Assembly (NCBI GenBank): GCA_965214035.1
Contig: OZ243932.1
Location: 937,215-1,001,214 of the forward strand
Reading direction: 5' to 3'
From: Gammaproteobacteria bacterium
Lineage (GTDB): Bacteria > Pseudomonadota > Gammaproteobacteria > JAJDYQ01
DNA length: 64,000 nucleotides
A program made the translations under genes and the position numbers. This document shows, piece after piece, positions 20,001 through 35,446 of the stretch; the first letter of the stretch is position 1; each line of letters begins with the position of its first letter. A model generated the notes under the pieces. That model saw only the letters and a list, made by a program, of their open reading frames with translations. It made no database searches and had not been told where the DNA came from.

Positions 20001-23000
20001 TACACGGTGGTGCTGGACATACCGCCGGCCGGTGATGTCACTATCCAGGGTGAGATTCCAATTCAGGGTGGCACACTGGATATCAGACTGGTTTTCACAA
20101 CTGTCAACTGGAATCAACCGCAGACGGTCAGCATATTTGGAAGCATTTTCCTGGCAGACAACATCGACAATCCTGGTGGTGAACGCACCGCCACGACCAT
20201 CATGCATACGGTCACTTCCACGGACAGTGGCTACGACGGCATTGAGGTTGACGATGTGACCGTCACTGTGACAGATGTCGATCCCACTACGGTAACCCTG
20301 TCGGGTGCGGCGCTGGATGTGGTTGAGGGCACCGAGCGTACCCTCACCGTGTCGCTGGAGCGGGCGCTGGTGGCGGGTGAAGTGCTGCCGGTACCGCTGA
20401 CCTTTGCCGGCACCGCCACCCGCGGCACGGATTACACCCTGGAGGGTGTGCCAGCGACGGGCATTGGCTATGAGAACCTGAACAGCGGCAATGCGCAGGT
20501 GACCTTTACCGGTGGCACCGGTGCGGTCGGTACCGCGACCCTGACATTCAGAGCCACACCGGATGCGGACGATGAAGGCAGTGGTGAGACGGTGACGATT
20601 GGTCTGGGCACCCTGGATGAGAACTCCGGCACCGGTCTGAACGGCGGTGGCACTGGTACCAGCAGTCTGGCACCATTCCGCATTATAGAAAAGCCGATGA
20701 TCAACATTGCGGGCGGTCCGGCGGTGACCGAGGGCGGCAGTGTGACCTTTACCCTGACGGCCAGTGAAGCGCCGCTGTCGGATCTGACCATCAACCTGAT
20801 GGTGACGGATGCCGTGCACAGTGATTTTCTGGCGGCGGCTCGCGGAGGCAGGCAGAGTATCACCTTCGTCGGCGGCACGACCTCGGTCAGCTACGAAATT
20901 CCGACGCTGGCCGATATCGATGACGAAGCCGGCGGCACAGTGATGGTGGCGCTGCTGGACGGTGATGGTTATGTGGCGGGCAGCGCACCATCGGCCACCA
21001 CAATGGTCAATGACGACGATGCCACCACGGTGACACTGGCAGGCACAGACGATGATGTCGGCGAGGGGGCACGCAAGGAGCTGACCGTGACGTTGAGTCG
21101 GGGTCTGGTGGCGGGTGAGGTACTGCCGGTTGCGCTGTCTTTTGCCGGCACGGCAACCCGCGGTACGGACTACACCCTGATGGAGACGGTAGCGAATGGC
21201 GTGAGCTATGCCAATCTCAATGGTGGTGGCAGTGCAACGGTGACCTTTACCGGCCCGGCGGCGGGTGTCGGCGTCACCGAGGCCCGACTAAGTCTGAGGG
21301 CTGAGTTGGATGGAACAACCGAGGGCCTCGAGACTGTCATCATCGGCCTGGGCACGCTGGATGCGGATTCCGGTACGAATCTGGGCGGTGGTGCGACCGG
21401 TGTGGATGAACTGGGTGATTTCCAGATTCAGGAAACCCCGGAGATAGTGCTGGAGCGCAATAGCCTGATGCTGACCGAGCAAGGCAGTGCGACCTATACG
21501 GTCGGCCTGTCTGTATCACCGACGGCCGATGTGACGGTCAGGATCACCGGTCAGGTTGACACGGATCTGCAGGTGGATGCCGACACGCTGATCTTCTCTC
21601 AAACCAACTGGAGCACGGCGCGCACCGTGACGCTGATGGCGGTATCGGATACCGACAGCGAGGACGAGGCACCGGTGATGCTGAGGCATACGGCTACCGG
21701 TGGCAATTATGGTTTGGCGATAATGCGGACGGTAACGGTATCGATTGCGGACAACACACCGGGTCTGGTGCTGTCAACGGGCAGCCTGGATATGGAAGAG
21801 AATGAGGCCGAGAGCTATACAATCCGGCTGGCGATTCGTCCGATGGCGGATGTGACGGTGAGTGTATCTTCCGGGGATGCGCCCCGCCTGCGGGTGACCG
21901 GCGGTGACAGCCTGACCTTTACGCCGACCAACTGGAATCGGGCGCAAAGTGTGACGGTGATGGCTGAGGATGACGACGACAGCGACGCCAACCAGGTGAC
22001 GCTGACCCACACGGCGGATGCCGGCTACGGTTCGGTGACAGGAGATATCACGGTGGATATTGCCGATGACGACATACCGCGTGTGGTGCTCGGTGTTGAT
22101 GAATTGACTGTAATCGAAGGCGGCAGTGCGAGCTACACGGTAGAGCTGGGTACCCGTCCATCGGGCAATGTGACGATCGCACTGAGCGGTCAGGGCAGCA
22201 CTTTGAGGCCGGACAGGTCCGAGCTGACTTTTGATGCGGGCAACTGGGGTCAGGCGCAGACCATCACGCTGACGGCGGTCATGGACAGTAATACGACCCA
22301 TGATCAGGTGACGCTGATCCACACCGCCAGTGGCTATAGTGCGGCCCCGGCCGATCTGCCGGTGACCATCACGGACAGCACGCCGCAGTTGAGCTTCTCG
22401 CAGACCACATTCAATCTGGACGAAGGTGACAGCACGACCTACACGCTGGAGCTGTCAGCCGAGCCGGTCGGCACGGTGACGGTCACGCTGAGCGGTCACG
22501 AACGCACTGAACTGACGCCGGAACCGACCGAACTCACTTTTACACAGGACAACTGGAGTGAAGCCCAGGCCATCACCCTGACGGCCGGCACGGACAGCAA
22601 CAGTGTGGATGAGACCATCACGCTGACCCATAGCGCGGATGCCGGCTACGGTGCGGTGACGGAAGAGGTGACGGTCACGGTCCGGGATGCGGATACACCG
22701 CGCCTGATACTGAATACCGATGAATTGATCGAAGGCGGCAGTGCCACCTATAGAGTGACCGAGCAGGGCAGTGCGACCTACACGGTGCGGCTGGGCACGC
22801 AGCCTCGGGTGGATGTGACGGTCACGTTGACCGGGCATGAGGGCAGTGATCTGGTACCGACCCCGGCCCGTCTGGTGTTTGGTCGGGACAACTGGAACCG
22901 TGCGCAGCAGGTGACGCTGACGGCACGCGATGACGATGACAGCGTGAATGACGCGGTGACACTGTCTCACCGGGCCAGTGGCGGGGCTTATGCGGGTGTG

Positions 23001-24842
23001 ACCGCGCCGCCGTTGCCGTTGCTCATTATTGATAATACGCCGGCATTGGTGCTCTCGACGACAGAGGTTCTGACCTTAGAGGTTCTGACCTTGCAGCCGG
23101 GGGGCAGCAGCAGCTACACGGTGGCACTGGCGATTGCACCGACCGCAGATGTGATCGTGACGGTGATGGGGCATGAGGACCCGGGTCTGACAGTGGCACC
23201 GGAAAGTCTGACATTCAGTATGGGTAACTGGAATATGGCACAGACCATCACGGTGACGGCGGGCACGGACAGCAATGCGTTGTCGAATCCGGTGATTCTG
23301 ACCCATATGGCATCGGGCGGAAACTATGACCGTGTGACGGCCCAGGTTGAGGTCCGTGTGGGCAGCACGGAGGCGATGCAGGCCGCACAGCAGATGTGGT
23401 TGCCACGCTTTGGTCTGACGGCGATTGAGCATATGCTGGGTGGTCTGCATCATCGTTTCACGGCATCAGACCAGCCGGGTCTGTCGGGTAATCTGAACGG
23501 TCTGCCGCGCGGTCAGTCATTCAATGCGGCGCGTTTGCTGTCCAGTCGCGGCGGCCCGGATGCCAGTGTGCTGGGCATTGAGCAATTGGGTGCCGGTTCG
23601 GCGGATCGTCCGCGCAAGCTGTCACGCACGCTGTCCTTGCCGAAGCTGTTGCCGTCCATGCTGCGCGGCAGTCATTTCACATTGAGTGACGAGGACGGTA
23701 CTTCGATCTGGGGGCGTGCCTCGTATTCGAGCTATAAAGACGCCGACGATGGTACTTCGATAGACGGCGAGGTCACCACGGCCATGCTGGGTGTTGACCA
23801 CAGCAGTGGTCGGACGCTGCTGGGTCTGGCGCTGGCTTACAGCGACAGTGATGGTGAATGGCAGGGGCAGGGTGAATCGGACAAAGGTGAGTTGTCCGGT
23901 ACGCTGGCCTCCCTGCTGCCGTACCTGCGTTATGACCTGACGGAGCGTCTGCAACTGTGGGGTGCGGCGAGCTATGGTCGAGGTGATCTGGAGCAGACTT
24001 CAGAGACCGGCAGCGGCATCGAGTCGGAGCACGATCTGGAGCAGGTATCGGCGACGCTGGGTCTGCGCGGTACGTTGCTGGATCGTCCGGTGGAAGAGGG
24101 CGGTTTGAGTCTGAGGCTGATTTCGGATATGACGCTGGCGCGTATCAAGTCGGATGATTCCAATGCTGGAGTGCCGGGAGTGCCGGGTATGACGTTGGAT
24201 ACACAGCGTTTCCGGATGGGTCTGGAATGGTCCTGGCAGTTGCCGGAAGGGGGCGGTATGCGCCTGACACCGGAGCTGGAACTGGGTCTGCGTTATGACG
24301 GTGGCGATACCAGTGAAGGCTTTGGTCTGGAGCTGGGCGGTGGCCTGAACTGGCAGTTACCGGCCCGTGGTTTGACCTTTGATGTGCGCAGCCGTTATCT
24401 GCTGGAGCATGAGGCCTCCGGGCGTGAGGAGTGGGGTCTGTCCGGTTCACTGCGTTACAAGGCACGGCCGGATTCGGCGCATGGTCCGTCGTTCAGTCTG
24501 CGCCATGAGTACGGCAATGCACCGGCGGCCAGTGGTCTGGATCGGTTGTTGTCGGACTCCCTGACAGATGCGTTGAAGGAAGACAACTCTCAAACCGCTG
24601 ATGTATCGAGCCGCTGGACGCTGAAAGGCGAGTGGGGTTTTGCCCTGATGGATGATGCCACCGGTATCCCCTATGCGAGTCTGTCGGCATCCGATGCGAA
24701 ACGTGATCTGACTCTGGGCTGGCGTCTGTTGTCGAACCCGGCTGGCCTGAAGTCGAAGCTGGATATCAAGGCCATCCGCCGCGAGCAGGATGATAATAAC
24801 CCGCGCCACAGCGTCGGCGCACAGTGGAAGCTGAATTGGTAG
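10992..24842 (+). CDS. Giant (~4616 aa) modular surface protein, copy 1. It has an extended signal region, dozens of Calx-beta-like and Ig-like ~100-aa repeats, and a C-terminal autotransporter-like beta-barrel domain.
   Basis: The ATG at 10992 has an SD (GAGAGGG) 8 nt upstream. The signal peptide is MVSLLGLPLLFGLATQAVAQ. Repeats include GTATRGTDYTL motifs. The C-terminus (MQAAQQMWLPRFGLT...AQWKLNW) is shared by all three copies. Confidence 0.85.
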   Translation: MPAVDAGRSAVHSCREAGASEPPGRLTRRSFSDSFHSVTARTAGWLRRAAMVSLLGLPLLFGLATQAVAQTVPTLKVEGDFSVTEGDSGTITLTLSQAASGTITFTTGSYLTDCDTHNCPTDISGASASDFSSGTGSTRTITFNIGDTTKSLTFMTTEDSAIESTEIFSIGIVDLASSEATIDPGTPADRIFFGTFMSWWVRILDDDAPPMISIAGGSPATEGAGTLTYTLTANKPPATDLTINLTVSEDETDGQNFVAAGDENSQAVTFPAGTTAASYTIPITDDEVDEARGEVTVTINDGTGYTAGTDTVTITVRDDDRTIVTLAENPAGDLDEGARKQITLTLNRPLVSGETQVLSLELGGTATVNTDYTLAGIPADGVRYEDLASGNPGIVFTGQTSGSATTATLTVTAIADGISDPGEVITMEFATSELVSPDGDAGIQDARGGGPVSATRTIAFRITEQPALVLNPSMLTIDEGDTATYIVSLATQPNASVAITVSGQADTDLTLSGDTLSGDTLSFTMMNWNQPQTITVTAGSDDDAQSDDPIALLHTATGGNYAGVTGEVTVTITEDDTAGITVQPTTLAVDEGGTNNYTVVLTSAPAGEVIIEVRPGTVATVDNDMLTFAQSNWNQAQTVTVTGMDDAVYNAGDARSGTITHTIGTADGGAYTTDLELDSVTVTVTDDDNPTLTVSLPNGETTIEEGSGFTRVRITADPEPGAGDSSRLINQDPSNDLSNVLFFSPGYGWSSFRAPDTSFDPDIDFEFNIADNDNDQPNGTLTIDVSVLRGFAAGSPSMVTLTIIDNDPTEVSLIRTGSTGAIDEGGTVAFTVQLSRALVAGEIIDVPLVIDGTGVTPADWSLSATGTGVVLSNENTMTPLLRFENAGAQTAELTLTAISDNTVEGGGSETYVIDLGLGLVISPDELNGIDQGSLNTNVGGGADPHSGSNTFSVQVDDPTLTVSLPNGETTIEEGGSSITARFTANPPVAQSLGIPSNFRTLTTGYTSFTSLEDDSLVRPVDIGYFIDENNMDQPNGTLTIHVSDSRFAAGSPSMVTLTIIDNDPTEVSLIYTGSTGAIDEGQAVTFTVQLSRALIAGEIIDVPLAIDGTGVTPADWGLTEQAGIANTGVSLHDTDTAVPFIRFSGAGAETALLQLAAALDDTDEGGSETFMIALGQDGSTTNGFDLPGRATNVGGGADPDGDNNRFELVVNDEGSTVLSIGIDSVTDAEGDAGETTFKTVTVSLSRPYSRDLVVNVRRSGSATRGTDYELVGTGDNNALINFNPVRRFTITAGATSVQFRIRVIGDTVFDIDETVVLTLIGLTTGISEAVTDVVISNIVGAVTHTIENDDPGGKVTVSRSALSMEEADGAASYTLVLDSQPGDEIILTVAGGEADTATVNTTGGMAGIEQTLTFTTMNWDQAQTVLVAAVNDDEDNAGGSRRLTLTHTITTGDDAGYSTGLPVDAVVVTVVDDDRTIVTLDENPAGDLDEGASKQITLTLNRGLVNGEELVVPLTFGGDATRGTDYTLMEVAANGVSYANLTGSDDPAVTFIGPSSGTTAMTATLTLRAIADSTSDPGESVTIVPGTLTDTSLDGGGTVTGSLAFNIIERVALILGPDRLMVSEGMQTASYTIRLASEPTAPVTVVVTGYVGTGLTLDNDELIFTAANWNIARQVTLTTAAMDSDLAGSTLQLRHTASGGNYLSVTADLSVTLLDDTAGVVVMPSGDNTLVSEDGARTDDYTLRLSTQPVGDVVVRATAGTGLSVNDAAAADLTFTATNWNQAQTVTIAGIDDDIASGALRTVSVTHTIVNSADSGYPEDALRIANLDVMLIDDDTAGLLLSSSDLTLSEGDTISYTVRLTSQPTAVVSVTITSDNEDLTAGNTPLMFSTDNWSMPQTVLLTANADDDSDDEQAQLTHRVAGGDYGAISEVISVRITDRSAGVDITQSGGNTIVREDGGEDSYTLVLNAAPRGDVTLTVTAAAGITVDTDSLTFTTGNWQTPQPVTVTGVNDDLDNPDDGREVMIRHAVSGAGDSAGYTPALSIAPVSVTVLDDDTAGLRFSRSVLAVVEGGSTSYGVRLTSQPTAVVTVTIASDNGDLTAGNTPLMFSTDNWPMPQTVTVTAGTDSDMDNNDVALSHTATGGGYNSVSATLGAMLLEGGTASVSIVQSDGRTIVTEGVSTDFYEVVLNTAPDRDVTVRVSADSGVTVNGAATLDLVFTPTNWHEAQPVMVAAVDNNADDGVRTADISHILSVGDNNDYDRTLTIAGVTVTVNRDPDDSRGRLVTLSGGDQEGSTRSFNFVFESSPGRSLGADEVMTLPLIPGGDAVRGQDYQVRCERNPAGRGSHPAVSCVESTDGQLMFILDGTQISPGRRTFRFTLPLEVELLEDNMAEPVETLTLRLGENGQDFRIPIMDAPSTVSVEFNKSIYRNNENFHSITLILEISPLLGRAIDLPLLFIDGTAQAGSDFEPISSTVLNFTSEGRAFFAITLLDDQIAEGDERFTVVIDETRLPDFITVGTNAAATVIMTDNDERGLVFDSDTLTLAEGGTGSYTVRLSSQPTDEVAVVIAGQAGTDLMLDRDILTFTTANWNQAQMVTVMAEDDDDGDADRIVLVHTASGGDYGLTARVQADIIDREAPEVRLNKEAITVSEGGSGDSYTLVLHTEPAGTVTVTLAPAAGITVQPGSVTFTVDNWNTPQAVTVTGVNSDEIDRGDRTVTIVHTITATDDADDYPEDLRIDPVRVTIEEDDEAGVMIVESGDRTAVSEDGGIRDDYTVVLTSQPAARVVVTATAAAGVSVDTQSLSGVQNTLTFTTLNWQSPQTVTVTGVDVDTVDRGDLDVSITHAITTTAGGYVKELSIDSVPVQVIDNDAANRLLFELVDPAADVLVTEGSEVAYTMQLVGQPLADVTVDISGHDGTDVTPAPTRLTFTTQNWNAGQTVTLTVAADDSGDGERVTLTHRASGGGYDGTEVALEVAITDSDISGVSISKDTLVAIENEAVTDSYTVVLDIPPAGDVTIQGEIPIQGGTLDIRLVFTTVNWNQPQTVSIFGSIFLADNIDNPGGERTATTIMHTVTSTDSGYDGIEVDDVTVTVTDVDPTTVTLSGAALDVVEGTERTLTVSLERALVAGEVLPVPLTFAGTATRGTDYTLEGVPATGIGYENLNSGNAQVTFTGGTGAVGTATLTFRATPDADDEGSGETVTIGLGTLDENSGTGLNGGGTGTSSLAPFRIIEKPMINIAGGPAVTEGGSVTFTLTASEAPLSDLTINLMVTDAVHSDFLAAARGGRQSITFVGGTTSVSYEIPTLADIDDEAGGTVMVALLDGDGYVAGSAPSATTMVNDDDATTVTLAGTDDDVGEGARKELTVTLSRGLVAGEVLPVALSFAGTATRGTDYTLMETVANGVSYANLNGGGSATVTFTGPAAGVGVTEARLSLRAELDGTTEGLETVIIGLGTLDADSGTNLGGGATGVDELGDFQIQETPEIVLERNSLMLTEQGSATYTVGLSVSPTADVTVRITGQVDTDLQVDADTLIFSQTNWSTARTVTLMAVSDTDSEDEAPVMLRHTATGGNYGLAIMRTVTVSIADNTPGLVLSTGSLDMEENEAESYTIRLAIRPMADVTVSVSSGDAPRLRVTGGDSLTFTPTNWNRAQSVTVMAEDDDDSDANQVTLTHTADAGYGSVTGDITVDIADDDIPRVVLGVDELTVIEGGSASYTVELGTRPSGNVTIALSGQGSTLRPDRSELTFDAGNWGQAQTITLTAVMDSNTTHDQVTLIHTASGYSAAPADLPVTITDSTPQLSFSQTTFNLDEGDSTTYTLELSAEPVGTVTVTLSGHERTELTPEPTELTFTQDNWSEAQAITLTAGTDSNSVDETITLTHSADAGYGAVTEEVTVTVRDADTPRLILNTDELIEGGSATYRVTEQGSATYTVRLGTQPRVDVTVTLTGHEGSDLVPTPARLVFGRDNWNRAQQVTLTARDDDDSVNDAVTLSHRASGGAYAGVTAPPLPLLIIDNTPALVLSTTEVLTLEVLTLQPGGSSSYTVALAIAPTADVIVTVMGHEDPGLTVAPESLTFSMGNWNMAQTITVTAGTDSNALSNPVILTHMASGGNYDRVTAQVEVRVGSTEAMQAAQQMWLPRFGLTAIEHMLGGLHHRFTASDQPGLSGNLNGLPRGQSFNAARLLSSRGGPDASVLGIEQLGAGSADRPRKLSRTLSLPKLLPSMLRGSHFTLSDEDGTSIWGRASYSSYKDADDGTSIDGEVTTAMLGVDHSSGRTLLGLALAYSDSDGEWQGQGESDKGELSGTLASLLPYLRYDLTERLQLWGAASYGRGDLEQTSETGSGIESEHDLEQVSATLGLRGTLLDRPVEEGGLSLRLISDMTLARIKSDDSNAGVPGVPGMTLDTQRFRMGLEWSWQLPEGGGMRLTPELELGLRYDGGDTSEGFGLELGGGLNWQLPARGLTFDVRSRYLLEHEASGREEWGLSGSLRYKARPDSAHGPSFSLRHEYGNAPAASGLDRLLSDSLTDALKEDNSQTADVSSRWTLKGEWGFALMDDATGIPYASLSASDAKRDLTLGWRLLSNPAGLKSKLDIKAIRREQDDNNPRHSVGAQWKLNW

Positions 24843-24850
24843 GAAGTCCG

Positions 24851-24927
24851 TAGCCGGCTCTTCTCTCTGCCGGCTGTTGCGGGGCCGGATTCCATCCACA
24901 TTGTCACCGGCTTCGCTTTTTTATGGC
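24851..24927 (+). terminator. Stem-loops plus a T6 run downstream of giant gene copy 1 (candidate intrinsic terminator).
   Basis: The hairpin AGCCGGC-N10-GCCGGCT is followed by GCGGGGCCGG...CCGGCTTCGC-TTTTTT. The copy-2 homolog is a perfect 10-bp stem. Confidence 0.4.
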
Positions 24928-25014
24928 TCCAACCGTCCATGCCTGACACGCTCAGGCATAGGCGGCAGGCTGTCCAGATTGCCCGACTGGCTCAGAGATA
25001 TATTGCCTCGTGAA

Positions 25015-25252
25015 TCAGGCTGATATTACGACGCAAAAGGAATTTCTCAGGTTGTGGTTGGCTTCGCATAACTTATCCAGTAGTTCAGGGGTCGATATTT
25101 CACATACTGTCGCCGTCTCTAATGCCATAACGGTGGAATTGGGACATATACTCCCAGCCCATCCAGACCCATAATCTCGCCGGGCAGGTAAAAGCCGGTT
25201 ATCTGCTCCCGGCCCTGCTCGTTAATGATGAATGTTTTATAAGAACCTGAGC
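25015..25252 (-). pseudogene. Decayed FNR/CRP-family regulator remnant (internal frameshift, both ends lost).
   Basis: The translated pieces are FIINEQGREQITGFYLPGEIMGLDGLG and ALETATVCEISTPELLDKLCEANHNLRNSF. They match the E. coli FNR segments [24 protein letters not shown] and [29 protein letters not shown]. Confidence 0.5.
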
Positions 25253-25311
25253 TGACAGCGAAAATCCTTCATGATGCTGCTTTCTGCATTAGGATAGCCA
25301 TATCCGTTTGA

Positions 25312-26100
25312 ATGGTTATCCAGAACATGGTTTTGCCTCCAAAACGACAGGGCCGCTCGCTTTCCGAATGGTTTCAGACAACAGCAGGAGCAGACTTACT
25401 GGAAAAGGAAAATACCCTGTTGAAGAAAGTCCTGCCGGAGCTGTTTGGCTATCATCTACTGTGGACCGGGGAAGGGAATTATTGGTCGGGTGTTGCAGCT
25501 TCATCGGTCGCACACCATGTCCGCCTGCAGGCACCGGATAAATCCGCTGCCAAAGATTGTGATGTCATCGGCAGCCATACCAGCCTGCCTGTTCAGCGGG
25601 ACAGCATTGATGTTGTCATTCTGCCGCATCTTCTGGAGTATGACCGACACCCACATGCGATCCTGAGAGAGGCCGAACGTGTACTCCATCCAAACGGCCA
25701 TATCATCATTCTGGGATTTAATCCGGTCGGCTATCATGGGTTCTGCCGGGTATTATCCGGATTCCGGGGTAATATGCCGTGGCAGGGACATTTTTATCAT
25801 CCCTTGCGCATCCGAGACTGGCTTAAATTGCTTGGTTTTGTTGTTAAGTCAGTAAGTTACACTGCTTTTTTACCGTCAATTCGATATGGAAAAATGGCCC
25901 GATGCAGCAGATTTATTGAAAAGGCGGGGCAGGGGATGCTTGCGCCGTTGAGTGGTGTGTATATGATCACCGCTCGTAATTTGATCGTTGCCTCCAATGT
26001 GATCAAGCCTGGGCGGAGCAGGAAAAAGGCGGTTCTTGATGGGGTGGTAGAACCGACAACCCGCATCTGTTTGCCGAATAAGCGGCTCCGGGAAGTATGA
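25312..26100 (+). CDS. Class I SAM-dependent methyltransferase, YafS-like (duplicate copy).
   Basis: The product is 262 aa and carries the MTase motif [11 protein letters not shown]...[13 protein letters not shown]. It is 98-99 percent identical to 35770..36558. Confidence 0.7.
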   Translation: MVIQNMVLPPKRQGRSLSEWFQTTAGADLLEKENTLLKKVLPELFGYHLLWTGEGNYWSGVAASSVAHHVRLQAPDKSAAKDCDVIGSHTSLPVQRDSIDVVILPHLLEYDRHPHAILREAERVLHPNGHIIILGFNPVGYHGFCRVLSGFRGNMPWQGHFYHPLRIRDWLKLLGFVVKSVSYTAFLPSIRYGKMARCSRFIEKAGQGMLAPLSGVYMITARNLIVASNVIKPGRSRKKAVLDGVVEPTTRICLPNKRLREV

Positions 26101-26146
26101 GCAAAGTAGAAATTTTTGTCGATGGTGCCTGTCGCGGTAATCCCGG
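26097..26146 (+). pseudogene. rnhA: 5' stub of rnhA (the first ~17 codons, [17 protein letters not shown]), cut off at the duplication junction.
   Basis: The stub is identical to the start of the intact rnhA at 36555. It then runs into antisense ppc sequence. Confidence 0.75.
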
Positions 26147-26470
26147 CCACGACGCTCCGCTGCGGCCGGCCATAGCTCGTTGGCGGTGCATAAAAGACTC
26201 CTCGGCGATATGCAGCAGGCCGAAAAAGACCGTATAGGCCCGGATTACACGCGACAACAAACCCGGCTCAAGCCGGCGGATACGGCGCATCAAACGCCGA
26301 CGCAAGGCCGGATCATCTTTTTTCCGCAGTTTGCTGAAACCGCGGCGCAAAGACTGCACCGTCTTCAAAACCTCAGACTCCTCCTGAGAACTCAATACAT
26401 GACCGAGCACATCCCCGAACAGTCGCACCCGACTGCGCAATACCTTGTCATACCTCAACTCAATAGCCAT
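26147..26470 (-). pseudogene. ppc: Duplicated 5' fragment of ppc (first 108 codons). In the ORF track it is part of the chimeric ORF 26003..26569.
   Basis: ~98 percent nt identity to 10159..10482. The fragment retains the ppc promoter region. Confidence 0.8.
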
Positions 26471-26801
26471 AAAAGCAACCCGTGCGACACCGATCCACCG
26501 ATAAAACAGCGCATTATAACCGGCAAAATCCCTCCATAAAGGCAGCCGTGACCACAAACCCCGACCCAATACACCATAAATTTCGACAAAAAATACAATT
26601 TATGCTAAAAAAGGCTGTTTTTTGCTGACCGGCTGCTATAATTCAGGAAACAAAGGCCAACTGAACCGCTTGCCAGTGATGGCAGGCTGATTCAAGATAA
26701 GCCCAACCCTGTCAGCAGGCACGGTATCCGGCCCTTGCAACGGATACCACAAACAGTAACCGATAATTGGAAATTGATGAAAACACGCGACGGAGAATAA
26801 C

Positions 26802-27032
26802 ATGAAATCTGGACAAAAATGGATTCTGAACAGCAACAAGGGTCATGCCGTGATATGCAAAATCATCACAGTCATAAACAATGCCTTGCGACCGGCAGGC
26901 ATCGATATTGACCTGTGTAAAAATACAGCCCCCCCCCCCCCCCCCCCAAATGGGAGGGTATATCTGATGCCGGCCGCTCTGCGGTGCATTCCTGTCGCGA
27001 GGCAGGTGCCTCTGAGCCTCCTGGCTGGCTGA
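26802..27032 (+). CDS. Upstream leader ORF (76 aa) of giant gene copy 2. It reads through the poly-C as Pro codons and through the ancestral start ATG.
   Basis: GGAGAATAAC-ATG context. It is in frame with the ATG at 26967 and stops at 27032, because of the missing 13-bp unit. Confidence 0.3.
   Translation: MKSGQKWILNSNKGHAVICKIITVINNALRPAGIDIDLCKNTAPPPPPPNGRVYLMPAALRCIPVARQVPLSLLAG
26929..26947 (+). repeat. Homopolymeric tract of 19 C, followed by only 3 A, upstream of giant gene copy 2.
   Basis: Counted directly in the sequence. Confidence 0.95.
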
Positions 27033-30000
27033 CGCGCCGGTCTTTTTCCGACAGTTTCCATTCTGTGACAGCCCGCACCGCCGGCTGGCTGCGCCGTTGC
27101 CGGGGTTCGTCCTCCCGGCCTGAATCTTCCGCTCCTGCGTCTGCCTTATCGAATCCTGACCGTTTAACTTCATCATCCGTCATTCCCGCGAAGGCGGGAA
27201 TCCACAACCGCCGGAACACGCCCCAACCCGATAATCATTCCCCCCTTGAGGGGGAGTCCAATCCGCTTGCGGATTGGGTGGGGGGACACAACCGTCATCC
27301 TGCGCCCCAACCAGCCGTCATTCCCGTGGAAGCGGGAATCCGCAACCATACGGAGATTGCGGTTAACCGTCATCGTAGGGGCGCCCCTCTGTGGGTGCCC
27401 GCTATCGTTGATACCTGTTCCGGTGGTTGCGGGAGGGCACAGAGACCCTCCCCTACGATAACGGTTCGATCACCACACAAAACCCACCTCGCCCGCCGTT
27501 CGTGGCGTGACTTGCTTTCAGCGTTGCTGTGCCTGTCGCTGCTTTTGGTCCTCGCTGCCGGGGAGGCGCAGGCGCAGACCACCCTGTCCATCAGCGCCCC
27601 CGCGGACGCGAACGAGGGCGATGCGGGCACGCGGGACCTCACGTTCACGGTGACCCGGACCGGAGGGACGGCCAATGCGAACTATCAAGTCTGTTTCACC
27701 GGCACGGCGACCATCGACACGACCGCGGCCGGCACCATTCCCGACGCCGCCGACTACCAGCCTTTAACCATCGTCAGCGGAACCGGTTTTCCAGCGGGCA
27801 GCAATTGCCTCACCGGCCAAACCGCCGGCATCGGTTCCGAGGGCATCCGCGTGAAGGGCGACACCGACGCCGAGTCCGACGAAACGGTGATCGCGACGCT
27901 GTCCTTGCGTGGTCCAAACCCCGGCGTCACCCTCGGCAACTCCGTAGTAACCCACACGATCCTCGACGACGACGACCCACAAATCACCATTGCTGCCGAC
28001 ACCGCCTCTGTCGCCGAAGGCACCACCGCCAGCTTTACCATCACGACCAACGCGCCTCCGGCAGACGACCTGACCATTAATTTAACTGTCTCTGATGACG
28101 AAACCAATGGCCAGAACTTTGTCGCTGCCGGTGACGAAGGCAGCAAAACGGTCACCATTCAGGCCGGTCAACTCTCGGCCACTCATACCGTCGCCACAGA
28201 CGACGACAGCACGGCCGAACTGAGCGGTGCGGTCACCGTCACCCTCAACGACGGCACCGGCTACACCGTCGGCTCCACCAACACCGCCACCGTCAACATC
28301 ACCAATGACGACCCCCATGTCGTATCCATCAGCATTGAACCGGAAGAAGCAGAAGGAGATGAAGGCAATAGTGGTGGCTTGACCGATGCCGCCACACTGA
28401 CCTTTACCGTCAATCCGCCATGGCCAGAGAGATTCGGGCTTAGAATCTGTTTGGACGGTGGTACCGCCGAGCGTGGTAGCAGTGCAGACTATCAGTTCAC
28501 ACGCCTGAATGACACAGTGCCTGCTATTGCTCCTGTTGCTGGTGGTTGCGATAGCGCTGTGCTAACCCTCTTCAGCAGTAATCAGGCATCCTCCATCTCA
28601 AAAATCCGGGTCAACGGTGACAGCCTGTTCGAGGCAGACGAAACCGTCACCGTCAGCCTGCAACGAAGCAATAATTTGGGCGGCACCTTCGACACTCCCG
28701 ACGATGTCATCATCTCCCCCACGGCCGGCAGTGTCATCTACACCATCCGCAATGACGATGACCCGCCCATGATTTCCATTGCCGGCGGCAGTCCGGCCAC
28801 CGAGGGAGTCGGCACGCTCACCTACACACTGACGGCGGACAAACCACCGGTCACAGATCTGACCATTGACCTGACCGTCATGGACGTACCCGGCAGTGAC
28901 TTTATTGCAGCAGAAGGCGACCAGACCGTCACCTTCCCGGCCGGCACCACCGCGCTCAACTACGAAATTCCGATCACCGACGATGAAGTCGATGAAGCCA
29001 GCGGCGAGGTCACGGTGACAATCAATGACGGTACCGGTTATACCGCCGGCACCGACACGGCCACCATCAGGGTGCGCGACGACGATAGAACCATCGTCAC
29101 CCTGGACGAAAATCCGGCCGGCGACCTCGATGAAGGCGCCAGCAAACAGATTACTCTCACACTGAACCGTCCGCTGGTTTCAGGTGAGGGACTGGTCTTC
29201 TCGCTCACCCTTGGTGGCACCGCCACGGTGAATACGGACTATACCCTGGCCGGCATACCGGCGGACGGCGTGAGTTACAGTAATCTGGCCCCGCCGACCG
29301 AGAGCTCTGCAATCTCCTTTACCGGCCAGACTTCCGGCTCTGCCACGACCGCCACACTGACCGTGACGGCCATCGCAGATGGTATCTTTGACCCCGGCGA
29401 GGGCATCACCATAGAGTTTGCAACGGGAATAGTAAGCCCGGACGGCGATGCGGGAATACAGGACGCTCGGGGCGGCGGTCCGGTCAGCGCCACCCGAACG
29501 ATTGCCTTCAGGATCAACGAACAACCGGCGCTGGTACTGAATCCATCCACCCTGACCATTGACGAGGGCGATACGGCGACCTACACCGTGTCTCTGGCCA
29601 CCCAGCCCAATGCGCCAGTGGCCATTACTGTAAGCGGTCAGGCCGATACCGATCTGACCTTGAGTGATGATACCCTCAACTTCACCATGATGAACTGGAA
29701 CCAGCCGCAGACCATCATGGTCACCGCCGGGTCGGACGACGACACCCAATCGGATGACCCGATCGCCCTGTTGCACACCGCCACCGGTGGCGACTATGCC
29801 ACCGTCACCGGTGAAGTCACGGTCACCATCACCGAAGACGATACGGCCGGTATCACCGTACAGCCGACCACCCTGGCCGTGGATGAAGACGGCACCAACA
29901 ACTATACCGTGGTACTGACCTCGGCCCCGGCCGGCGAGGTCATCATCACGGTTGATTCGGGCACGGTCGCCACCGTCAATAATGACATGCTGACCTTTGC

Positions 30001-33000
30001 CCAGAGTAACTGGAATCAGGCACAGACGGTCACCGTGACCGGCATGGATGACAATGTCCACAATGCCGGCGATGCACGCTCTGGCACCATCACCCATGCC
30101 ATTAGTCAGGGCGACAGCGGCGATTACCCTATTGGCCGTGAGATTGACCCGGTACAGCTCACCGTCGCCGACAACGACGACCCGGCCTTGAGCATACAGG
30201 TGGTGGGCGACCATACCAGCATTGAAGAAGGCGGTGCCCGCATGATACGGATCACCGTATCGCCGGATACCGGCGAGAGCTTTATGCTGCTCGATGTCCG
30301 TCCCTTGCTGAGGATCAGCGACGGCTATGAGTTGACGCTGGTTCAGACCGACACCAGCCTGAATCCGACCCTGCAATTTGAGGTCAGCGTGACCGACAAT
30401 GATCAGGATGGGGCGGATGGTATGCTGACCATTGATGTTTCCTCCGTGACCGGCTATGCCGCCGGCAGCCCGGCCATGGTACAACTGACTGTCAATGACA
30501 ACGACCAGGCCGATATCCTGATCACCGGGACCGGTAGCGTCACCCGTGTCGCTGAAAACGGCGGCACCGACAGCTACAGGGTGGTACTGACCTCACAGCC
30601 AACCGCCAGCGTCACCGTCACCGCTGCTCCCGGCACCGGCATCACGATGACCGACACCACCCTGACCTTTACCAGCACGGACTGGAACCAACCGCAGACC
30701 CTCATCGTCACCGGTCAGGATAACAATGACGACGATGCCAGCGATCGCCGTGTCGCCATCAGCCATACCCTGAGCGGCGATAGCCAATACAGCGGCCTCA
30801 GCATTGACGACCTGATGGTCATGGTTGATGACGACGACCCGACCGAAGTCAGCCTGACCCGCACCGGCAGCACGGGCGCCATTGATGAAGGCCAGGCCGT
30901 TACCTTCACGGTCGAGTTAGGTCGTGCCCTGATCGCCGGCGAAATCATCGAGGTACCTCTGAGCGTAACCGGTACCGATGTCGAACTGACCGACTGGAGC
31001 CTGGCACTACAATCGGGCACGGGTGTGGTTCTGTCCAATGAGGACACAATGACCCCACAACTGAGTTTTGAGAATGCTGGCGCACAGACGGCTGAACTGA
31101 CCTTGACCGCCATCGGCGACAATACGATGGAGGGCGGTGGTTCCGAGACCTTCATCATTGCCCTGGGGCCGGACGGCACGGTCACCAATGGCTTTGACCA
31201 CAGCAGTCTGAACACGAATGTGGGCGGCGGTGCCGATCCGGATTCACCCGACCATTTCAGTGTGCAGGTCAACGATGTCATGGTGATGCCGATGATCACC
31301 ATCACCGGCGGTACCACGGTCACAGAAGGAATGGGCAGTGCCAGCTTTACCCTGACCGCCACACCGGCTCCGACGGACGCCCTGACCCTGATGCTCAATA
31401 TCAGCGGCGGCAGCGGTTTTATCGCCACCAGCGGCGCACAGTCAGTCACCCTGAATAGTGGTTCCAGCACGGTGACCTATTTGATTGCGACGCAGGGCGA
31501 TGCCGTGGATGAGGCGAATGGCACGGTCACCGTGACGGTGGGTGATGGTGCGGGCTATGAAGTGGGCGATCCGTCCGAGGTGTCCGCGTCCGTCGCGATA
31601 CATGACGACGATGCCACCACAGTCACGCTGGCCGGTGATCCTGGTAATGTGGCCGAAGGCGACAGCAAACCGCTCACCCTCACCCTGGGTCGTGCCCTGA
31701 CGGCCGGCGAACAACTGACCGTGCCGCTGACCTTCGGCGGTACGGCTGTCTTCGGCACCGACTACACACTGACCGGCACCACAGCCAATGGCGTGGATTA
31801 CAGCGATCTGAGCGGCGGCAGCGTGATCTTCAGCGCCGGTGGTCAGATGGCCACCCTGACCCTGATGGCACAAACGGATGCCGTGGCCGAGACCGGCGGC
31901 GAAACGGTCCGCATTGCTCTGGGCACACTGGACAGCAGTTCCGGCACCAACCTGGGCGGCGGTGCCTCTGGCACGACCAATCTGGACGAGTTTACGATTG
32001 AGGAACAACCGGCGCTGGTATTGAGCACGACCCGCCTGACCCTCATTGAAGGCGACAGTGCCAGCTACCGAGTCAGCCTGGCAGTCGCACCGAGCGCCGA
32101 TGTCATGGTGACCCTCACCGGCACCAATGCCGAACTACAGGCCGATGACACCACCCTGACCTTTACCTCACAGAACTGGGGTAACCCGCAGACCGTCACG
32201 CTGACGGCGGTCACGGACAGTAACACCGTGACGGATCAGGTGACGCTGACCCACAGTGCCGATGCCGGCTATGATTCCGTCATGGCCAGCCTGACGGTGG
32301 AGCTGATTGACAGCACACCACAGTTGAGTTTCTCGCAGACCACGATTGATCTGAATGAAGGTGACAGCACGACTTATACACTGCAACTATCGGCTGAGCC
32401 GGTCGGCACGGTGACGGTCGCACTGAGCGGTTATGACGGCACTGCGCTGGCGCCGCAGCCGCTTGAGTTGACCTTTACACAGGATAACTGGAATCAGGCA
32501 CAGACGATTACCCTGAGCGCCGGCACGGACAGCAACAGCGTGAATGAGGCTGACGTGACACTGGTTCATACGGCGGATGCCGGCTACGGCGAGGAGGTCA
32601 CGGAAGACGTGACGGTGACGATTGCCGACACCGACGCACCGCGCCTGATTGTGGGTGTCAATACCCTGAGCGTGACCGAGCAGGGCAGTGCGACCTACAC
32701 GGTCACCCTGACCACCGAGCCGAGTGCCGATGTCACGGTGACGATTACCGGTCAATCCGGTGATCTGAGAGTGGATAGCGGCACTGAGCTGACCTTCACG
32801 CAGTCCAACTGGAATGAGGGACAGGTGGTCACACTGTCAGCCATTGCCGACGATGACAGCGAGGATGAGGCGTTGATCACCCTGACGCACACGGCGTCCG
32901 GTGGTGGATACGGGACTGCCTCGGCGGAACGGTTATCGGTGCGCATTCTGGACAGCACACGGGGTTTGGTGCTCTCAGAGAGCAGCCTGGATATGGAAGA

Positions 33001-35368
33001 AAATGATACCGCGAGCTACACGGTGCGTCTGGCGCTGCGTCCGATGGCGGATGTGACGGTGAGTGTATCTTCCGGGGATGCGACCCGCCTGCGGGTGACC
33101 GGTGGTGACAGCCTGACCTTTACGCCGACCAACTGGAATCAGGCACAGACGGTGACGGTGATGGCCGCAGACGACATTGACAGTGATGCCAATCGGGTGC
33201 TGCTGACCCATACGGCGGATGCCGACTATGGTGCGGTGCAGGCTGTGCTGCCGGTTGAGATTGCCGATGACGATGTGCCGCGTCTGCTGCTGAGTGTTGA
33301 TGAGTTGAGCTTGATTGAAGGCGGCAGTGCGAGCTACACGGTAGCACTGGGTACCCGTCCATCGGGCAATGTGACGGTCGCACTGAGCGGTCAGGGCAGC
33401 GCTCTGAGGCCGGACAGGTCCGAACTGACTTTTGATGCAAGCAACTGGGCTCAGGCGCAGACCATCACGCTGACGGCGGCCATGGACAGTAACACCGATG
33501 ATGGTCAAGTGAGATTGACTCACACAGCCAGTGGTGGCTATAGTGCGGCCCCGGTCCGCCTGCCGGTGACCATCACCGACAGTTCGCCGCAGTTGCAGTT
33601 TTCACGCATGGCGATTGATCTCGATGAAGGCGGCAGTACCCGCTACACCGTGCGCCTGTCGGCTCGGCCGGTGGCGGAAGTCACAGTCATGCTCAGCGGT
33701 CATGCCGGTACCGGCATGAGCGTGAATCCGCTTGAGTTGACCTTTGGCCTGACGGACTGGAATCAGGCACAGACCATTACCTTGACGGCCGGCACGGACA
33801 GCAACAGTGTGGATGAGACCATCACGTTGACCCATAGCGCGAATGCCGGCTACGGTGAGGTGACGGAAGAGGTGACGGTCACGGTCCGGGACAGCGATGA
33901 ATCGGCCGACATGACGGCCATGCAGGCCGCACAGCAGATGTGGCTGCCGCGCTTTGGTCTGACGGCCGTCGAGCACATGCTGGGTGGTCTGGATTACCGA
34001 TTCACAGCATCGAGTCAGCCGGGTCTGTCGGGCAATCTGAACGGTCTGCCGCGCGGTCAGTCATTCAATGCGGCGCGTCTGTTGTCCAGCCGTGGCAGCC
34101 CGGATGCCAGTGCGATGGGTATTGAGCAGTTGGGTGCCGGTTCGTCGGATCGTCCGCGCAAGCTGTCACGCACCCTGTCACTGCCGAAGCTGCTGCCGTC
34201 GTTGCTGCGTGGTAGTCATTTCACATTCCGTGACGAGGACGGTACTTCGATCTGGGGGCGTGCCTCGTATTCGAGCTATAAAGACGCCGACGATGGTACT
34301 TCGATAGACGGCGAGGTCACCACGGCCATGCTGGGTGTTGACCACAGCAGTGGTCGGACGCTGCTGGGTCTGGCACTGGCCTACAGCGACAGCGATGGCG
34401 AATGGCAGAGTGCATCAGCATCGGACGAAGGTGATCTGTCCGGTACGCTGGCCTCCCTGCTGCCGTACCTGCGTTATGACCTGACGGAGCGTCTGCAACT
34501 GTGGGGTGCGGCGAGCTACGGTCGAGGTGATCTGGAGCAGACTTCACAGACCGGCAGGTCGGAGCACGATCTGGAGCAGGTATCGGCCACCGCCGGTCTG
34601 CGCGGTACGTTGCTGGATCGTCCGGTGGAAGAGGGCGGTTTGAGTCTGAGGCTGATTTCGGGCCTGACACTGGCGCGTATCAAGTCGGATGATTCCCGCG
34701 TCATGGCGGGCACCGAGGCGGATACGCAGCGTTTCCGCATGGGTCTGGCCTGGTCCTGGCAGTTACCGGAAGAGGACGGTGTGCGTCTGACACCGGAACT
34801 GGAGCTGGGTCTGCGTTATGACGGCGGCGATACCAGCGAAGGCTTTGGTCTGGAGCTGGGCGGCGGCCTGAGCTGGCAGACACCGGCCAAGGGTTTGACG
34901 GTGGATATACGCGGTCGCTATCTGCTGGAGCATGAGGCTGCCGAGCGTGAGGAGTGGGGTCTGTCCGGCTCACTGCGCTACGAGGCGTGGCCAAACTCGG
35001 CCTATGGCCCATCGTTCAGCCTGCGCCATGAGTACGGCAATGCACCGGCGGCCAGCGGTCTGGATCGGTTGTTATCGGATTCATTGACGGATGCGCTGGA
35101 GGAAGAAGACAACCGACATACTGCTGCCGTATCGAGCCGCTGGACGCTGAAAGGCGAGTGGGGCTTTGCCCTGACAGACGATGCCACCGGCATCCCCTAT
35201 GCGAGCCTGTCGGCCTCCGATGCGAAACGTGATCTGACCCTCGGCTGGCGTCTGTTGTCGAACCCGGCTGGCCTGAAGTCGAAGCTGGATATCAAGGCCA
35301 TCCGCCGCGAGCAGGATGACAATAACCCGCGCCATAGCGTCGGCGCACAGTGGAAGCTGAATTGGTAG
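26984..35368 (+). CDS. Giant modular surface protein, copy 2 (~2620-2794 aa). The domain repertoire and C-terminal beta-barrel domain match copy 1. The 5' end is rearranged, and the true start probably lies near 27500 (TTG 27512), just before the signal peptide.
   Basis: The ORF is long and uninterrupted. Its first ~170 codons translate the repeat-element insertion. The signal-peptide-like LLSALLCLSLLLVLAAGEAQAQ is at 27512..27580. The C-terminal 490 aa are ~95 percent identical to copy 1. Confidence 0.75.
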   Translation: MHSCREAGASEPPGWLTRRSFSDSFHSVTARTAGWLRRCRGSSSRPESSAPASALSNPDRLTSSSVIPAKAGIHNRRNTPQPDNHSPLEGESNPLADWVGGHNRHPAPQPAVIPVEAGIRNHTEIAVNRHRRGAPLWVPAIVDTCSGGCGRAQRPSPTITVRSPHKTHLARRSWRDLLSALLCLSLLLVLAAGEAQAQTTLSISAPADANEGDAGTRDLTFTVTRTGGTANANYQVCFTGTATIDTTAAGTIPDAADYQPLTIVSGTGFPAGSNCLTGQTAGIGSEGIRVKGDTDAESDETVIATLSLRGPNPGVTLGNSVVTHTILDDDDPQITIAADTASVAEGTTASFTITTNAPPADDLTINLTVSDDETNGQNFVAAGDEGSKTVTIQAGQLSATHTVATDDDSTAELSGAVTVTLNDGTGYTVGSTNTATVNITNDDPHVVSISIEPEEAEGDEGNSGGLTDAATLTFTVNPPWPERFGLRICLDGGTAERGSSADYQFTRLNDTVPAIAPVAGGCDSAVLTLFSSNQASSISKIRVNGDSLFEADETVTVSLQRSNNLGGTFDTPDDVIISPTAGSVIYTIRNDDDPPMISIAGGSPATEGVGTLTYTLTADKPPVTDLTIDLTVMDVPGSDFIAAEGDQTVTFPAGTTALNYEIPITDDEVDEASGEVTVTINDGTGYTAGTDTATIRVRDDDRTIVTLDENPAGDLDEGASKQITLTLNRPLVSGEGLVFSLTLGGTATVNTDYTLAGIPADGVSYSNLAPPTESSAISFTGQTSGSATTATLTVTAIADGIFDPGEGITIEFATGIVSPDGDAGIQDARGGGPVSATRTIAFRINEQPALVLNPSTLTIDEGDTATYTVSLATQPNAPVAITVSGQADTDLTLSDDTLNFTMMNWNQPQTIMVTAGSDDDTQSDDPIALLHTATGGDYATVTGEVTVTITEDDTAGITVQPTTLAVDEDGTNNYTVVLTSAPAGEVIITVDSGTVATVNNDMLTFAQSNWNQAQTVTVTGMDDNVHNAGDARSGTITHAISQGDSGDYPIGREIDPVQLTVADNDDPALSIQVVGDHTSIEEGGARMIRITVSPDTGESFMLLDVRPLLRISDGYELTLVQTDTSLNPTLQFEVSVTDNDQDGADGMLTIDVSSVTGYAAGSPAMVQLTVNDNDQADILITGTGSVTRVAENGGTDSYRVVLTSQPTASVTVTAAPGTGITMTDTTLTFTSTDWNQPQTLIVTGQDNNDDDASDRRVAISHTLSGDSQYSGLSIDDLMVMVDDDDPTEVSLTRTGSTGAIDEGQAVTFTVELGRALIAGEIIEVPLSVTGTDVELTDWSLALQSGTGVVLSNEDTMTPQLSFENAGAQTAELTLTAIGDNTMEGGGSETFIIALGPDGTVTNGFDHSSLNTNVGGGADPDSPDHFSVQVNDVMVMPMITITGGTTVTEGMGSASFTLTATPAPTDALTLMLNISGGSGFIATSGAQSVTLNSGSSTVTYLIATQGDAVDEANGTVTVTVGDGAGYEVGDPSEVSASVAIHDDDATTVTLAGDPGNVAEGDSKPLTLTLGRALTAGEQLTVPLTFGGTAVFGTDYTLTGTTANGVDYSDLSGGSVIFSAGGQMATLTLMAQTDAVAETGGETVRIALGTLDSSSGTNLGGGASGTTNLDEFTIEEQPALVLSTTRLTLIEGDSASYRVSLAVAPSADVMVTLTGTNAELQADDTTLTFTSQNWGNPQTVTLTAVTDSNTVTDQVTLTHSADAGYDSVMASLTVELIDSTPQLSFSQTTIDLNEGDSTTYTLQLSAEPVGTVTVALSGYDGTALAPQPLELTFTQDNWNQAQTITLSAGTDSNSVNEADVTLVHTADAGYGEEVTEDVTVTIADTDAPRLIVGVNTLSVTEQGSATYTVTLTTEPSADVTVTITGQSGDLRVDSGTELTFTQSNWNEGQVVTLSAIADDDSEDEALITLTHTASGGGYGTASAERLSVRILDSTRGLVLSESSLDMEENDTASYTVRLALRPMADVTVSVSSGDATRLRVTGGDSLTFTPTNWNQAQTVTVMAADDIDSDANRVLLTHTADADYGAVQAVLPVEIADDDVPRLLLSVDELSLIEGGSASYTVALGTRPSGNVTVALSGQGSALRPDRSELTFDASNWAQAQTITLTAAMDSNTDDGQVRLTHTASGGYSAAPVRLPVTITDSSPQLQFSRMAIDLDEGGSTRYTVRLSARPVAEVTVMLSGHAGTGMSVNPLELTFGLTDWNQAQTITLTAGTDSNSVDETITLTHSANAGYGEVTEEVTVTVRDSDESADMTAMQAAQQMWLPRFGLTAVEHMLGGLDYRFTASSQPGLSGNLNGLPRGQSFNAARLLSSRGSPDASAMGIEQLGAGSSDRPRKLSRTLSLPKLLPSLLRGSHFTFRDEDGTSIWGRASYSSYKDADDGTSIDGEVTTAMLGVDHSSGRTLLGLALAYSDSDGEWQSASASDEGDLSGTLASLLPYLRYDLTERLQLWGAASYGRGDLEQTSQTGRSEHDLEQVSATAGLRGTLLDRPVEEGGLSLRLISGLTLARIKSDDSRVMAGTEADTQRFRMGLAWSWQLPEEDGVRLTPELELGLRYDGGDTSEGFGLELGGGLSWQTPAKGLTVDIRGRYLLEHEAAEREEWGLSGSLRYEAWPNSAYGPSFSLRHEYGNAPAASGLDRLLSDSLTDALEEEDNRHTAAVSSRWTLKGEWGFALTDDATGIPYASLSASDAKRDLTLGWRLLSNPAGLKSKLDIKAIRREQDDNNPRHSVGAQWKLNW
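27101..27470 (+). repeat. Cluster of small palindromic repeat elements (REP or MITE-like) inserted in the copy-2 5' region. It includes two ATTCCC-N8-GGGAAT hairpins and several other perfect hairpins.
   Basis: The hairpins are ATTCCCGCGAAGGCGGGAAT (27180..27199) and ATTCCCGTGGAAGCGGGAAT. CAATCCGCttGCGGATTG, CCCCCttgaGGGGG and GGGGCGCCCC are also present. A flanking 10-bp inverted repeat ATCGTAGGGG...CCCCTACGAT is present. The whole segment is absent from copy 1. Confidence 0.7.
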
Positions 35369-35376
35369 GAAGTCCG

Positions 35377-35446
35377 TAGCCGGCACCTCTCTGCCGGCTG
35401 TTGCGGGGCCGGATCCATCCGTATTGTCACCGGCCCCGCTTTTTTA
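35377..35446 (+). terminator. Intrinsic terminator downstream of giant gene copy 2.
   Basis: GCGGGGCCGG-N17-CCGGCCCCGC is a perfect 10-bp stem, followed by TTTTTT. Confidence 0.55.

Follow-up and report, generated by a model that had tools for sequence, protein, structure and literature searches.

Poly-C tracts and giant genes in the window

The window analyzed here (i.e., the whole 64-kb stretch of DNA) contains three giant paralogous genes, and poly-C tracts of 28 and 19 nucleotides (C28 and C19) lie at homologous sites of two tandemly duplicated units. The gene order is copy 0 (the third giant paralogue, with its C terminus ending at 2466), pepA, lptF/G, ppc, a 510-bp intergenic region with C28, and giant copy 1, followed by a methyltransferase gene, a 50-nt rnhA stub, a ppc stub, the intergenic copy with C19, and giant copy 2. 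Downstream of copy 2 lie a second methyltransferase gene and then full-length rnhA and dnaQ. The ppc gene (PEP carboxylase, 7705 to 10482) is the divergent neighbor of copy 1 and, like its duplicated 329-nt 5' stub (26142 to 26470), is on the minus strand; the giant ORFs, the methyltransferase gene and all leader and N-terminal features described below are on the plus strand. The SAM-methyltransferase gene (YafS-like, 25312 to 26100) follows copy 1 and recurs at 35770 to 36558. By BLASTN, the duplication units span 10154 to 26146 and 26142 to 36604, the ppc stub forming the left edge of unit 2. Their flanks are 98 to 99% identical, and the passenger regions are 77 to 90% identical and rearranged or mosaic. 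At the duplication junction, the 50-nt rnhA stub is joined to the 329-nt ppc stub. In the homologous proteins P0247 and P0248, the same 5' module is found on different passenger N termini; mosaic passengers together with a shared 5' module suggest cassette-like recombination.

Copy 1 (10992 to 24842) encodes 4,616 aa from its SD-proximal ATG and carries Calx-beta and fn3-like repeats. Its product starts with MPAVDAGRSAVHSCREAG...RRSFSDSF...WLRRAAMVSLLGLPLLFGLATQAVAQ, namely, an Arg-rich extension of ~50 aa and then a hydrophobic stretch that includes an AxA motif. Two in-frame 15-nt tandem repeats were also seen in this gene, at 12519 to 12557 (2.6 copies) and 23063 to 23092 (2.0 copies). Copy 2 (26984 to 35368; frame open from the TAA at 26918) is a fully open Calx-beta ORF of 8.4 kb (2.8 kaa), but it has no plausible start of its own. 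Copy 0 matched the Autotransporter family PF03797 above the Pfam cutoff (E = 3.2e-10), and the C-terminal ~800 aa of copy 1 are 45% identical to copy 0; taken alone, copies 1 and 2 fell below the cutoff. The giant genes are accordingly predicted to encode classical (type Va) autotransporter surface proteins. In copy 2, a signal-peptide-like segment (RRSWRDLLSALLCLSLLLVLAAGEAQA, 27494 to 27574) was read from the sequence, and a 402-nt insert (27098 to 27499) lies in frame within the N-terminal extension, between ...TAGWLRR and this segment. The insert is flanked by GCCGT and is made of REP-like palindromes (dRS3-like GTCATTCCCGCGAAGGCGGGAATCC, with an inverted pair at 27365 to 27466). Its length is a multiple of 3, and it contains 0 stops in the frame of the giant ORF versus 2 to 7 in the other five frames. 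A Neisseria origin, suspected from these dRS3-like repeats, was rejected, since a search of the window for DNA-uptake-sequence variants found none and the nearest ppc sequences are gammaproteobacterial (see below).

The copy-2 tract consists of exactly 19 C (26929 to 26947) and is followed by an A3 run (26948 to 26950), whereas its copy-1 paralogue comprises 28 C (10941 to 10968) followed by A7 (10969 to 10975). These counts are as assembled, and the exact figures hang on assembly accuracy. An earlier note on this DNA had reported the 19 C at this position, a longer homologous tract of 28 C in copy 1, AAA versus A7 behind the tracts and flanks that are ~98 percent identical, and we reproduced each of these observations. 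More specifically, the upstream flanks (10154 to 10940 versus 26142 to 26928) agree at 772 positions and show 14 mismatches, copy-specific substitutions at 26788 and 26794 included, and 2 gap positions. The stretch between the leader ATG and the tract is identical throughout (127 of 127 nt), and in the downstream flanks 145 positions match, 2 do not, and 13 nt are gapped. Within 50 nt, the two copies thus differ by 9 C, by A7/A3, by a G/A substitution and by a 13-bp direct-repeat indel.

Long C/G runs are otherwise rare in this DNA. A 12-C probe gave 25 overlapping matches in the window, all inside C19 and C28, and gave 0 matches in dinucleotide-preserving shuffles (n = 100); C19 and C28 are the only C/G runs of at least 9 nt in the 64 kb. 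A C8 run at 6259 to 6266, in an lptF-like ORF (5499 to 6647), is the sole other C/G run of at least 8 nt. Both tracts exceed the length of ~7 to 8 G/C taken as a criterion for high-rate slippage. In a synteny search, none of 80 genomes with ppc relatives had a C/G run of at least 9 nt close to ppc, and the tract is therefore not linked to ppc as such. An exact-pattern search of JGI metagenomes for C8 preceded by the upstream flank had no matches, and a scan with C12-AAATGGG returned at least 120 matches, none from the giant autotransporter family among the matches listed. C14-AAATGGGAGGGTATAGATATG was met with in an unrelated, AT-rich contig from an ocean metagenome (L127:1680-1715), and it matches the window for 8 nt past the search pattern (AGGGTATA).

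Leader reading frames across the tracts

Both tracts are read through by a leader ORF with a strong ribosome-binding site. In copy 2, a Shine-Dalgarno (SD) sequence, GGAGAA (26792 to 26797), stands 4 nt before the leader ATG at 26802, and the leader ORF (26802 to 27032) encodes 76 aa at C19; in copy 1, GGAGGA (10804 to 10809) precedes a leader ORF (10814 to 10978) of 54 aa at C28. The leader comprises 43 codons from the ATG and then the tract as poly-Pro, the tract coding for consecutive Pro in every frame. The statement in the earlier note that the copy-2 tract is translated within this ORF holds, the reading being Ala-Pro6-Asn. The leader had no match in Pfam (including ESPR) at E<=1, and no protein homologue was found for its first 43 residues; on these grounds, we rejected the idea that the leader peptide is an ESPR or another domain already described. 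Likewise, a known RNA element in the leader was discarded, as the Rfam matches over the whole window were three tRNAs.

Directly 3' of the tract lies AAATGGGAGGGTATATCTGATG in copy 2 and A7-TGAGAGGGTATATCTGATG in copy 1, and in both copies a second SD, 8 nt ahead of its ATG, follows; this second ATG stands about 19 to 24 nt past the tract end (26967 and 10992, respectively). In copy 2, this SD-like sequence is GGGAGGG (26952 to 26958), 8 nt before the ATG; it is conserved as AAATGGG..ATG in a related locus on contig L089 and is implied in a homologous protein, P0001. The second ATG of copy 1 is the start of the giant ORF and is embedded in a direct repeat, GATGCCGGCCGTC|GATGCCGGCCGCTC (10991 to 11017). 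Copy 2 retains a single unit (26966 to 26979), the one remaining copy of the GATGCCGGCCG repeat marking the site of a 13-bp deletion relative to copy 1. The copy-1 state is regarded as ancestral, because it is common to P0001 (MLAIDAGRS) and L089 (MLSLAIDTGRR). As a consequence of the deletion, ATG 26967 and the giant ORF are in different frames, and the giant ORF is closed at C19: the leader keeps the ...PPPNGRVYLM... frame, runs on through ATG 26967 and ends at 27032. A terminator-like hairpin with T5 occurs at 11061 to 11085 and 27023 to 27047, inside the conserved N-terminal extension (...LTRRSFSD...), and its core, TTCCGAC(A/G)GT, is also present in the homologous loci L083 and L088.

We tabulated the leader frame for C15 to C23 in copy 2 and for C24 to C32 in copy 1. 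In copy 2, the leader ATG joins the frame of the giant ORF only at C17, C20 and C23, so that the locus as assembled is closed and one +1 slip away from open. In copy 1, three outcomes alternate with tract length: (i) at n = 1 mod 3 (C28), the leader ends at TGA 10976, 13 nt before ATG 10992; (ii) at n = 2 mod 3 (C26 and C29), it ends in a TGATG overlap with ATG 10992; and (iii) at n = 0 mod 3 (C27 and C30), it continues in frame into the giant ORF, giving a fusion. The frame table bears out the earlier claim that any +/-1 change shifts the frame of the upstream ORF. Read in silico from the leader ATG, the repeat would lie inside an ORF near its 5' end and would toggle full-length versus prematurely stopped products; in L089, a repeat is found inside the ORF near the 5' end in the gene as called.

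These features of copy 2 also bear on an alternative, namely, that this gene is a decaying pseudogene or silent cassette and that C19 is a relic of the duplicated 5' module that no longer regulates anything, with copy 2 serving at most as a recombination donor for copy 1. The 13-bp deletion leaves the SD-proximal ATG out of frame, the REP-like insert parts the N-terminal extension from the signal segment with no credible start nearby, the passengers are mosaic between nearly identical flanks, and the locus is degraded or rearranged in relatives (a 132-aa stub in P0001; REP arrays in L081 and L085 to L087). Against decay speak an 8.4-kb ORF that is fully open, an insert that is a multiple of 3 and stop-free in the frame of the giant ORF alone, and the restoration of a continuous ORF from a strong SD and ATG by a single +1 C. 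We consider this alternative doubtful, though a serious contender; given the insert, copy 2 may be dead whatever the tract does. Even if copy 2 were a pseudogene, tracts of this class could still be switches.

Related loci in other genomes

Contig L089 (51 kb) comes from another sample and has different neighbor genes; over the C-terminal 816 aa of copy 0, its product, P0127, shows 48% identity. The locus reads GGAGAGAGAGGAA, ATGATG, 17 codons, C39-A-C31 (6735 to 6805, 71 nt) and then AAATGGGGTATTTATG, past which follows MLSLAIDTGRRS...LLGLPLLAGL. The gene call starts at the leader ATG and keeps the repeat in frame (P13-T-P10, 23 Pro), and the gene is split in two at 9971/10001. A second related locus, on the circular 2.57-Mb contig L088 (ppc 70% identical), comprises AGGAG, ATG, 22 codons and a perfect pentamer array, (GCCGA)x19.8 (6033 to 6131), which encodes AEPSR and has a unit length not divisible by 3. 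The TGA that ends the leader overlaps the following ATG (CCATGAATG), beyond which lies the conserved ...SSDG...RRALLSALLCLPLLAGL segment. A TAG 10 codons past that ATG and a split ORF suggest either a pseudogene or long-read errors in L088; both contigs are apparently long-read assemblies with split genes, so homopolymer errors are possible.

P0001 is 88% identical to the N terminus of copy 1, on a contig that also carries a ppc of the 95% cluster (see below). It reads ...ECGRITLSPNGKVYLMLAIDAGRS, with Ser-Pro-Asn at the tract site, and its upstream reading frame is continuous with the gene, a 132-aa stub. Since Ser-Pro-Asn leaves room for at most 5 C, the long tract appears to be a lineage-specific expansion. 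The copy-2 leader, L089 and P0001 have one frame in common, ...P-N-G-[KRV]-V-[YF]-(L)-M-x-x-A-[IV]-D-x-G-R, and the N-terminal extension is conserved in the distant P0002/L083 (49% identity across the part of the query that was matched). P0246 and P0247 are called from the internal Met that corresponds to the second ATG (MPAVDAGRS), and the leader may therefore not belong to the protein.

In the closest relatives, L081 and L085 to L087, the ppc-proximal intergenic sequence is kept up to ATGAAATCTG[G/A]ACAAA, and is followed by REP-like palindromic arrays and by another ORF, with a different SD+ATGATG start; these contigs all end within a few hundred bases of there. The L085 contig also carries an orthologue of copy 0. 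The arrays are located at L081:60-175, L086:130-375, L085:1-75 and L087:1-30 (strand -), and REP-like units of ~23 to 30 nt (CCCGTCATTCCTGCGAAAGCAGG) stand right after the conserved leader ATG (ATGAAATCTGGACAAAC). An ATGA-type stop/start overlap was observed in both L088 and L081. No repeat was found at the site in the homologues L083 and L210, and L210, a candidate third paralogue in the 2.57-Mb relative, was rejected as a short beta-domain-only gene devoid of any repeat. Residues ~30 to 42 of P0255 read ...LSPPPPHTHTQ..., which is compatible with a C run followed by (CA)n in the DNA.

In all of the repeat-bearing homologues, a leader with a strong SD and ATG reads through the repeat, and the alleles differ in repeat number: the paralogues have 19 and 28 C, L089 has C39-A-C31, and P0001 can have no more than 5 C. 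The claim of the earlier note that length variation at this site is real in the lineage finds support in L089 and P0001. Of all the evidence, this comparison tells us most: a repeat that recurs with varied unit and length and is missing in close relatives is the signature of a contingency locus rather than of a fixed regulatory element.

A further question is whether errors of sequencing or assembly account, wholly or partly, for the difference between 19 and 28 C. Several platforms are prone to errors in long homopolymers, so that the caution of the earlier note about homopolymer miscalling stands, the short-read metagenome contigs of the relatives break in this region, and the genes in L088 and L089 are fragmented. 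Yet the A7/A3 difference, the G/A substitution and the clean 13-bp indel within 50 nt mark the copies as truly distinct alleles, the existence of the tract is corroborated by the independent L089 assembly, and both flanks run into conserved sequence, unlike end-of-read poly-G/C artefacts. We regard an artefactual origin of the difference as highly improbable.

We also assessed whether the tract acts at the mRNA level, through structure or access to the ribosome-binding site, rather than through the reading frame. The promoter scan found none spanning the tract. TTGACC (26908 to 26913) is separated by 45 nt from the nearest -10-like hexamer, TATATC (58 nt in copy 1), and a promoter-spacer repeat is excluded because neither hexamers 45 to 58 nt apart nor a tract of 19 to 71 nt fits a spacing of near 17 bp. 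Weak promoter-like hexamers were noted at 10786 to 10815 and L089:6657-6685, where the -10 (TAACATg and TATCATg, respectively) overlaps the leader ATG; if they are real, the leader ATG would be absent from the mRNA. As for RNA structure, a small hairpin, CTGTGTAAAAATACAG (26913 to 26928), adjoins the 5' end of the copy-2 tract, and an imperfect inverted repeat brackets the tract (5' arm, 26890 to 26903; 3' arm, 26966 to 26979), its 3' arm containing ATG 26967-26969. The bracketing stem pairs with the second ATG and has fold z scores of -4.3 in copy 1 and -3.3 in copy 2, the two copies being too similar for a covariation test; when looked for in L089, the stem was not recovered (z = +0.9).

An action at the mRNA level is favored by this pairing with the start codon, by the overlap of the promoter-like hexamers with the leader ATG, by the distance of ~19 to 23 nt between the tract end and the SD and ATG used by gene callers in other members, and by the uspA1 precedent (PMC7302503). 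Set against these points are the geometry that excludes a promoter spacer, the failure of the stem to recur in L089, the fact that the copy-2 ATG to be served is out of frame with the gene, and the strong SD and ATG leader running through the repeat in every repeat-bearing homologue. On balance, we find this explanation unlikely.

Another reading is that the leader is a poly-proline stalling peptide, with EF-P- or prolyl-tRNA-dependent pausing gating the downstream start and slippage being secondary. Salmonella mgtP is such a case, i.e., a proline-codon leader in which ribosome pausing controls downstream access. The leaders here encode 6 to 9 consecutive Pro (23 in L089), in two of three frames they end at or just before the main ATG (TGA 13 nt upstream; TGATG), ATGA-type overlaps recur in L088 and L081, and the stem sequesters the ATG. 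Nevertheless, the L088 pentamer codes for AEPSR and not for poly-Pro, P0001 has no tract, and the stem is not conserved in L089. Stalling as the primary function is in our judgment quite improbable.

Proposed mechanism, host lineage and comparison with known systems

We lean toward the view that C19 is a slipped-strand contingency locus of the translational (frame-shifting) type for a giant Calx-beta autotransporter, a proposal that we hold with moderate confidence. Slipped-strand mispairing would alter the number of C in a translated 5' leader or N-terminal extension, and the number of C would set the frame of ribosomes leaving the tract after initiation at the leader SD and ATG 26802. Copy 2 would then operate as a strict gate, OFF at C19 and ON at C20, C17 or C23, when the leader would be fused to the 2.8-kaa ORF. 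As copy 1 keeps its own in-frame SD and ATG, its tract probably tunes expression as a modulator instead of acting as a strict gate. Two further points support the proposal, namely, the confinement of the tracts to the homologous site of the copies (versus 0 matches in shuffles) and the nature of the controlled gene, which encodes a surface product with an autotransporter C terminus and a Calx-beta passenger. An on/off switch is most likely because related genes bear other slippage-prone repeats at the same spot.

We infer that the leader is translated, that tract length changes reversibly at a high rate and that the fused product is exported. The leader-fused product would have ~115 aa (copy 1) or ~250 aa (copy 2) before the hydrophobic signal segment, and such a long N-terminal extension before the signal segment is unusual for Sec export. 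A more elaborate version would be a three-state translational selector by length mod 3 (fused; TGATG/ATGA hand-over; early stop over the SD), conserved throughout a family of giant adhesins of symbionts, with EF-P-dependent poly-proline stalling and RNA-polymerase slippage as a non-genetic layer; this version strikes us as a long shot. RNA-polymerase slippage on C runs of 19 to 70 nt would probably blur the frames, too.

With respect to the host, the best ppc match among GTDB species representatives was 69%, and the closest ppc sequences (55 to 71%) belong to uncultured or sulfur-oxidizing Gammaproteobacteria. A 95%-identity ppc cluster was found only in KELL22-1-labelled contigs and one 2.51-Mb NCBI contig, and the label fits an Ircinia sponge study (PMC9531527). 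Many of the passenger-domain homologues are named as sponge symbionts. From the KELL22-1 label and these names, the host bacterium is probably sponge-associated.

Contingency loci are textbook tools of host-adapted pathogens. A search for literature linking sponge symbionts with phase variation found no such paper among the matches listed, all of which dealt with pathogens. Here, members of one giant Calx-beta family from at least three genomes have slippage-prone repeats of differing kinds at a shared 5' site, and the lineage consists of uncultured sulfur-oxidizer-like gammaproteobacteria appearing in sponge metagenomes. The recurrent repeats imply that stochastic variation is selected for in this surface protein, which is very costly, and such variation could bear on the escape of symbionts from host phagocytosis or from phages. 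In practical terms, automated gene calling will wrongly report these genes as split or truncated, and breaks in assemblies are to be expected at the tracts. A three-state leader coupling or a role in symbiosis, if true, would raise the interest of the locus.

Several known systems invite comparison. The Neisseria autotransporter genes nalP and ausI have poly-C tracts in the coding region, and autA and autB have AAGC repeats directly past the start codon (PMC5472700). The resemblance would consist in a homopolymeric C tract or short repeat close to the 5' end of an autotransporter ORF, with gain or loss of units shifting the frame and turning a surface protein on or off. Unlike those of nalP and ausI, the tracts in the window lie in a leader upstream of a second SD and ATG, and they precede Calx-beta giants of 2.8 to 4.6 kaa in an uncultured gammaproteobacterium rather than in a human pathogen. 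The tracts of nalP, ausI, autA and autB are much shorter than the 19 to 28 nt found here (71 nt in L089).

Neisseria opa carries a CTCTT pentamer in the region coding for the signal peptide. In Helicobacter pylori, oipA has a CT repeat in its 5' region (PMC10564699). The loci studied here resemble opa and oipA in having a repeat with a unit that is not a multiple of 3 in the N-terminal leader region of an outer-membrane protein, L088 with its (GCCGA)x19.8 being of the same design; gene families and repeat units differ.

In Moraxella catarrhalis uspA1, a G(n) tract lies 29 bp upstream of the ORF, and its length gives graded expression (PMC7302503). Relative to the second ATG, uspA1 offers the closest geometry, with a G/C homopolymer tens of bp before an adhesin start. 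In contrast to uspA1, in which an untranslated tract acts at the mRNA level, an ORF with a strong SD and ATG reads through the tract here, and the downstream ATG of copy 2 is out of frame.

Bordetella fim2/fim3 and Neisseria meningitidis opc/porA have poly-C/G tracts that set the spacing between -35 and -10 or between an activator site and the -10. They share with our loci the position of poly-C/G upstream of genes for surface structures, but a tract of 19 to 71 nt without suitably placed hexamers cannot set such a spacing. Taken together, the locus is best explained as a switch of a known type, with tracts of unusual length and in a host lineage and a gene family that are new for it.
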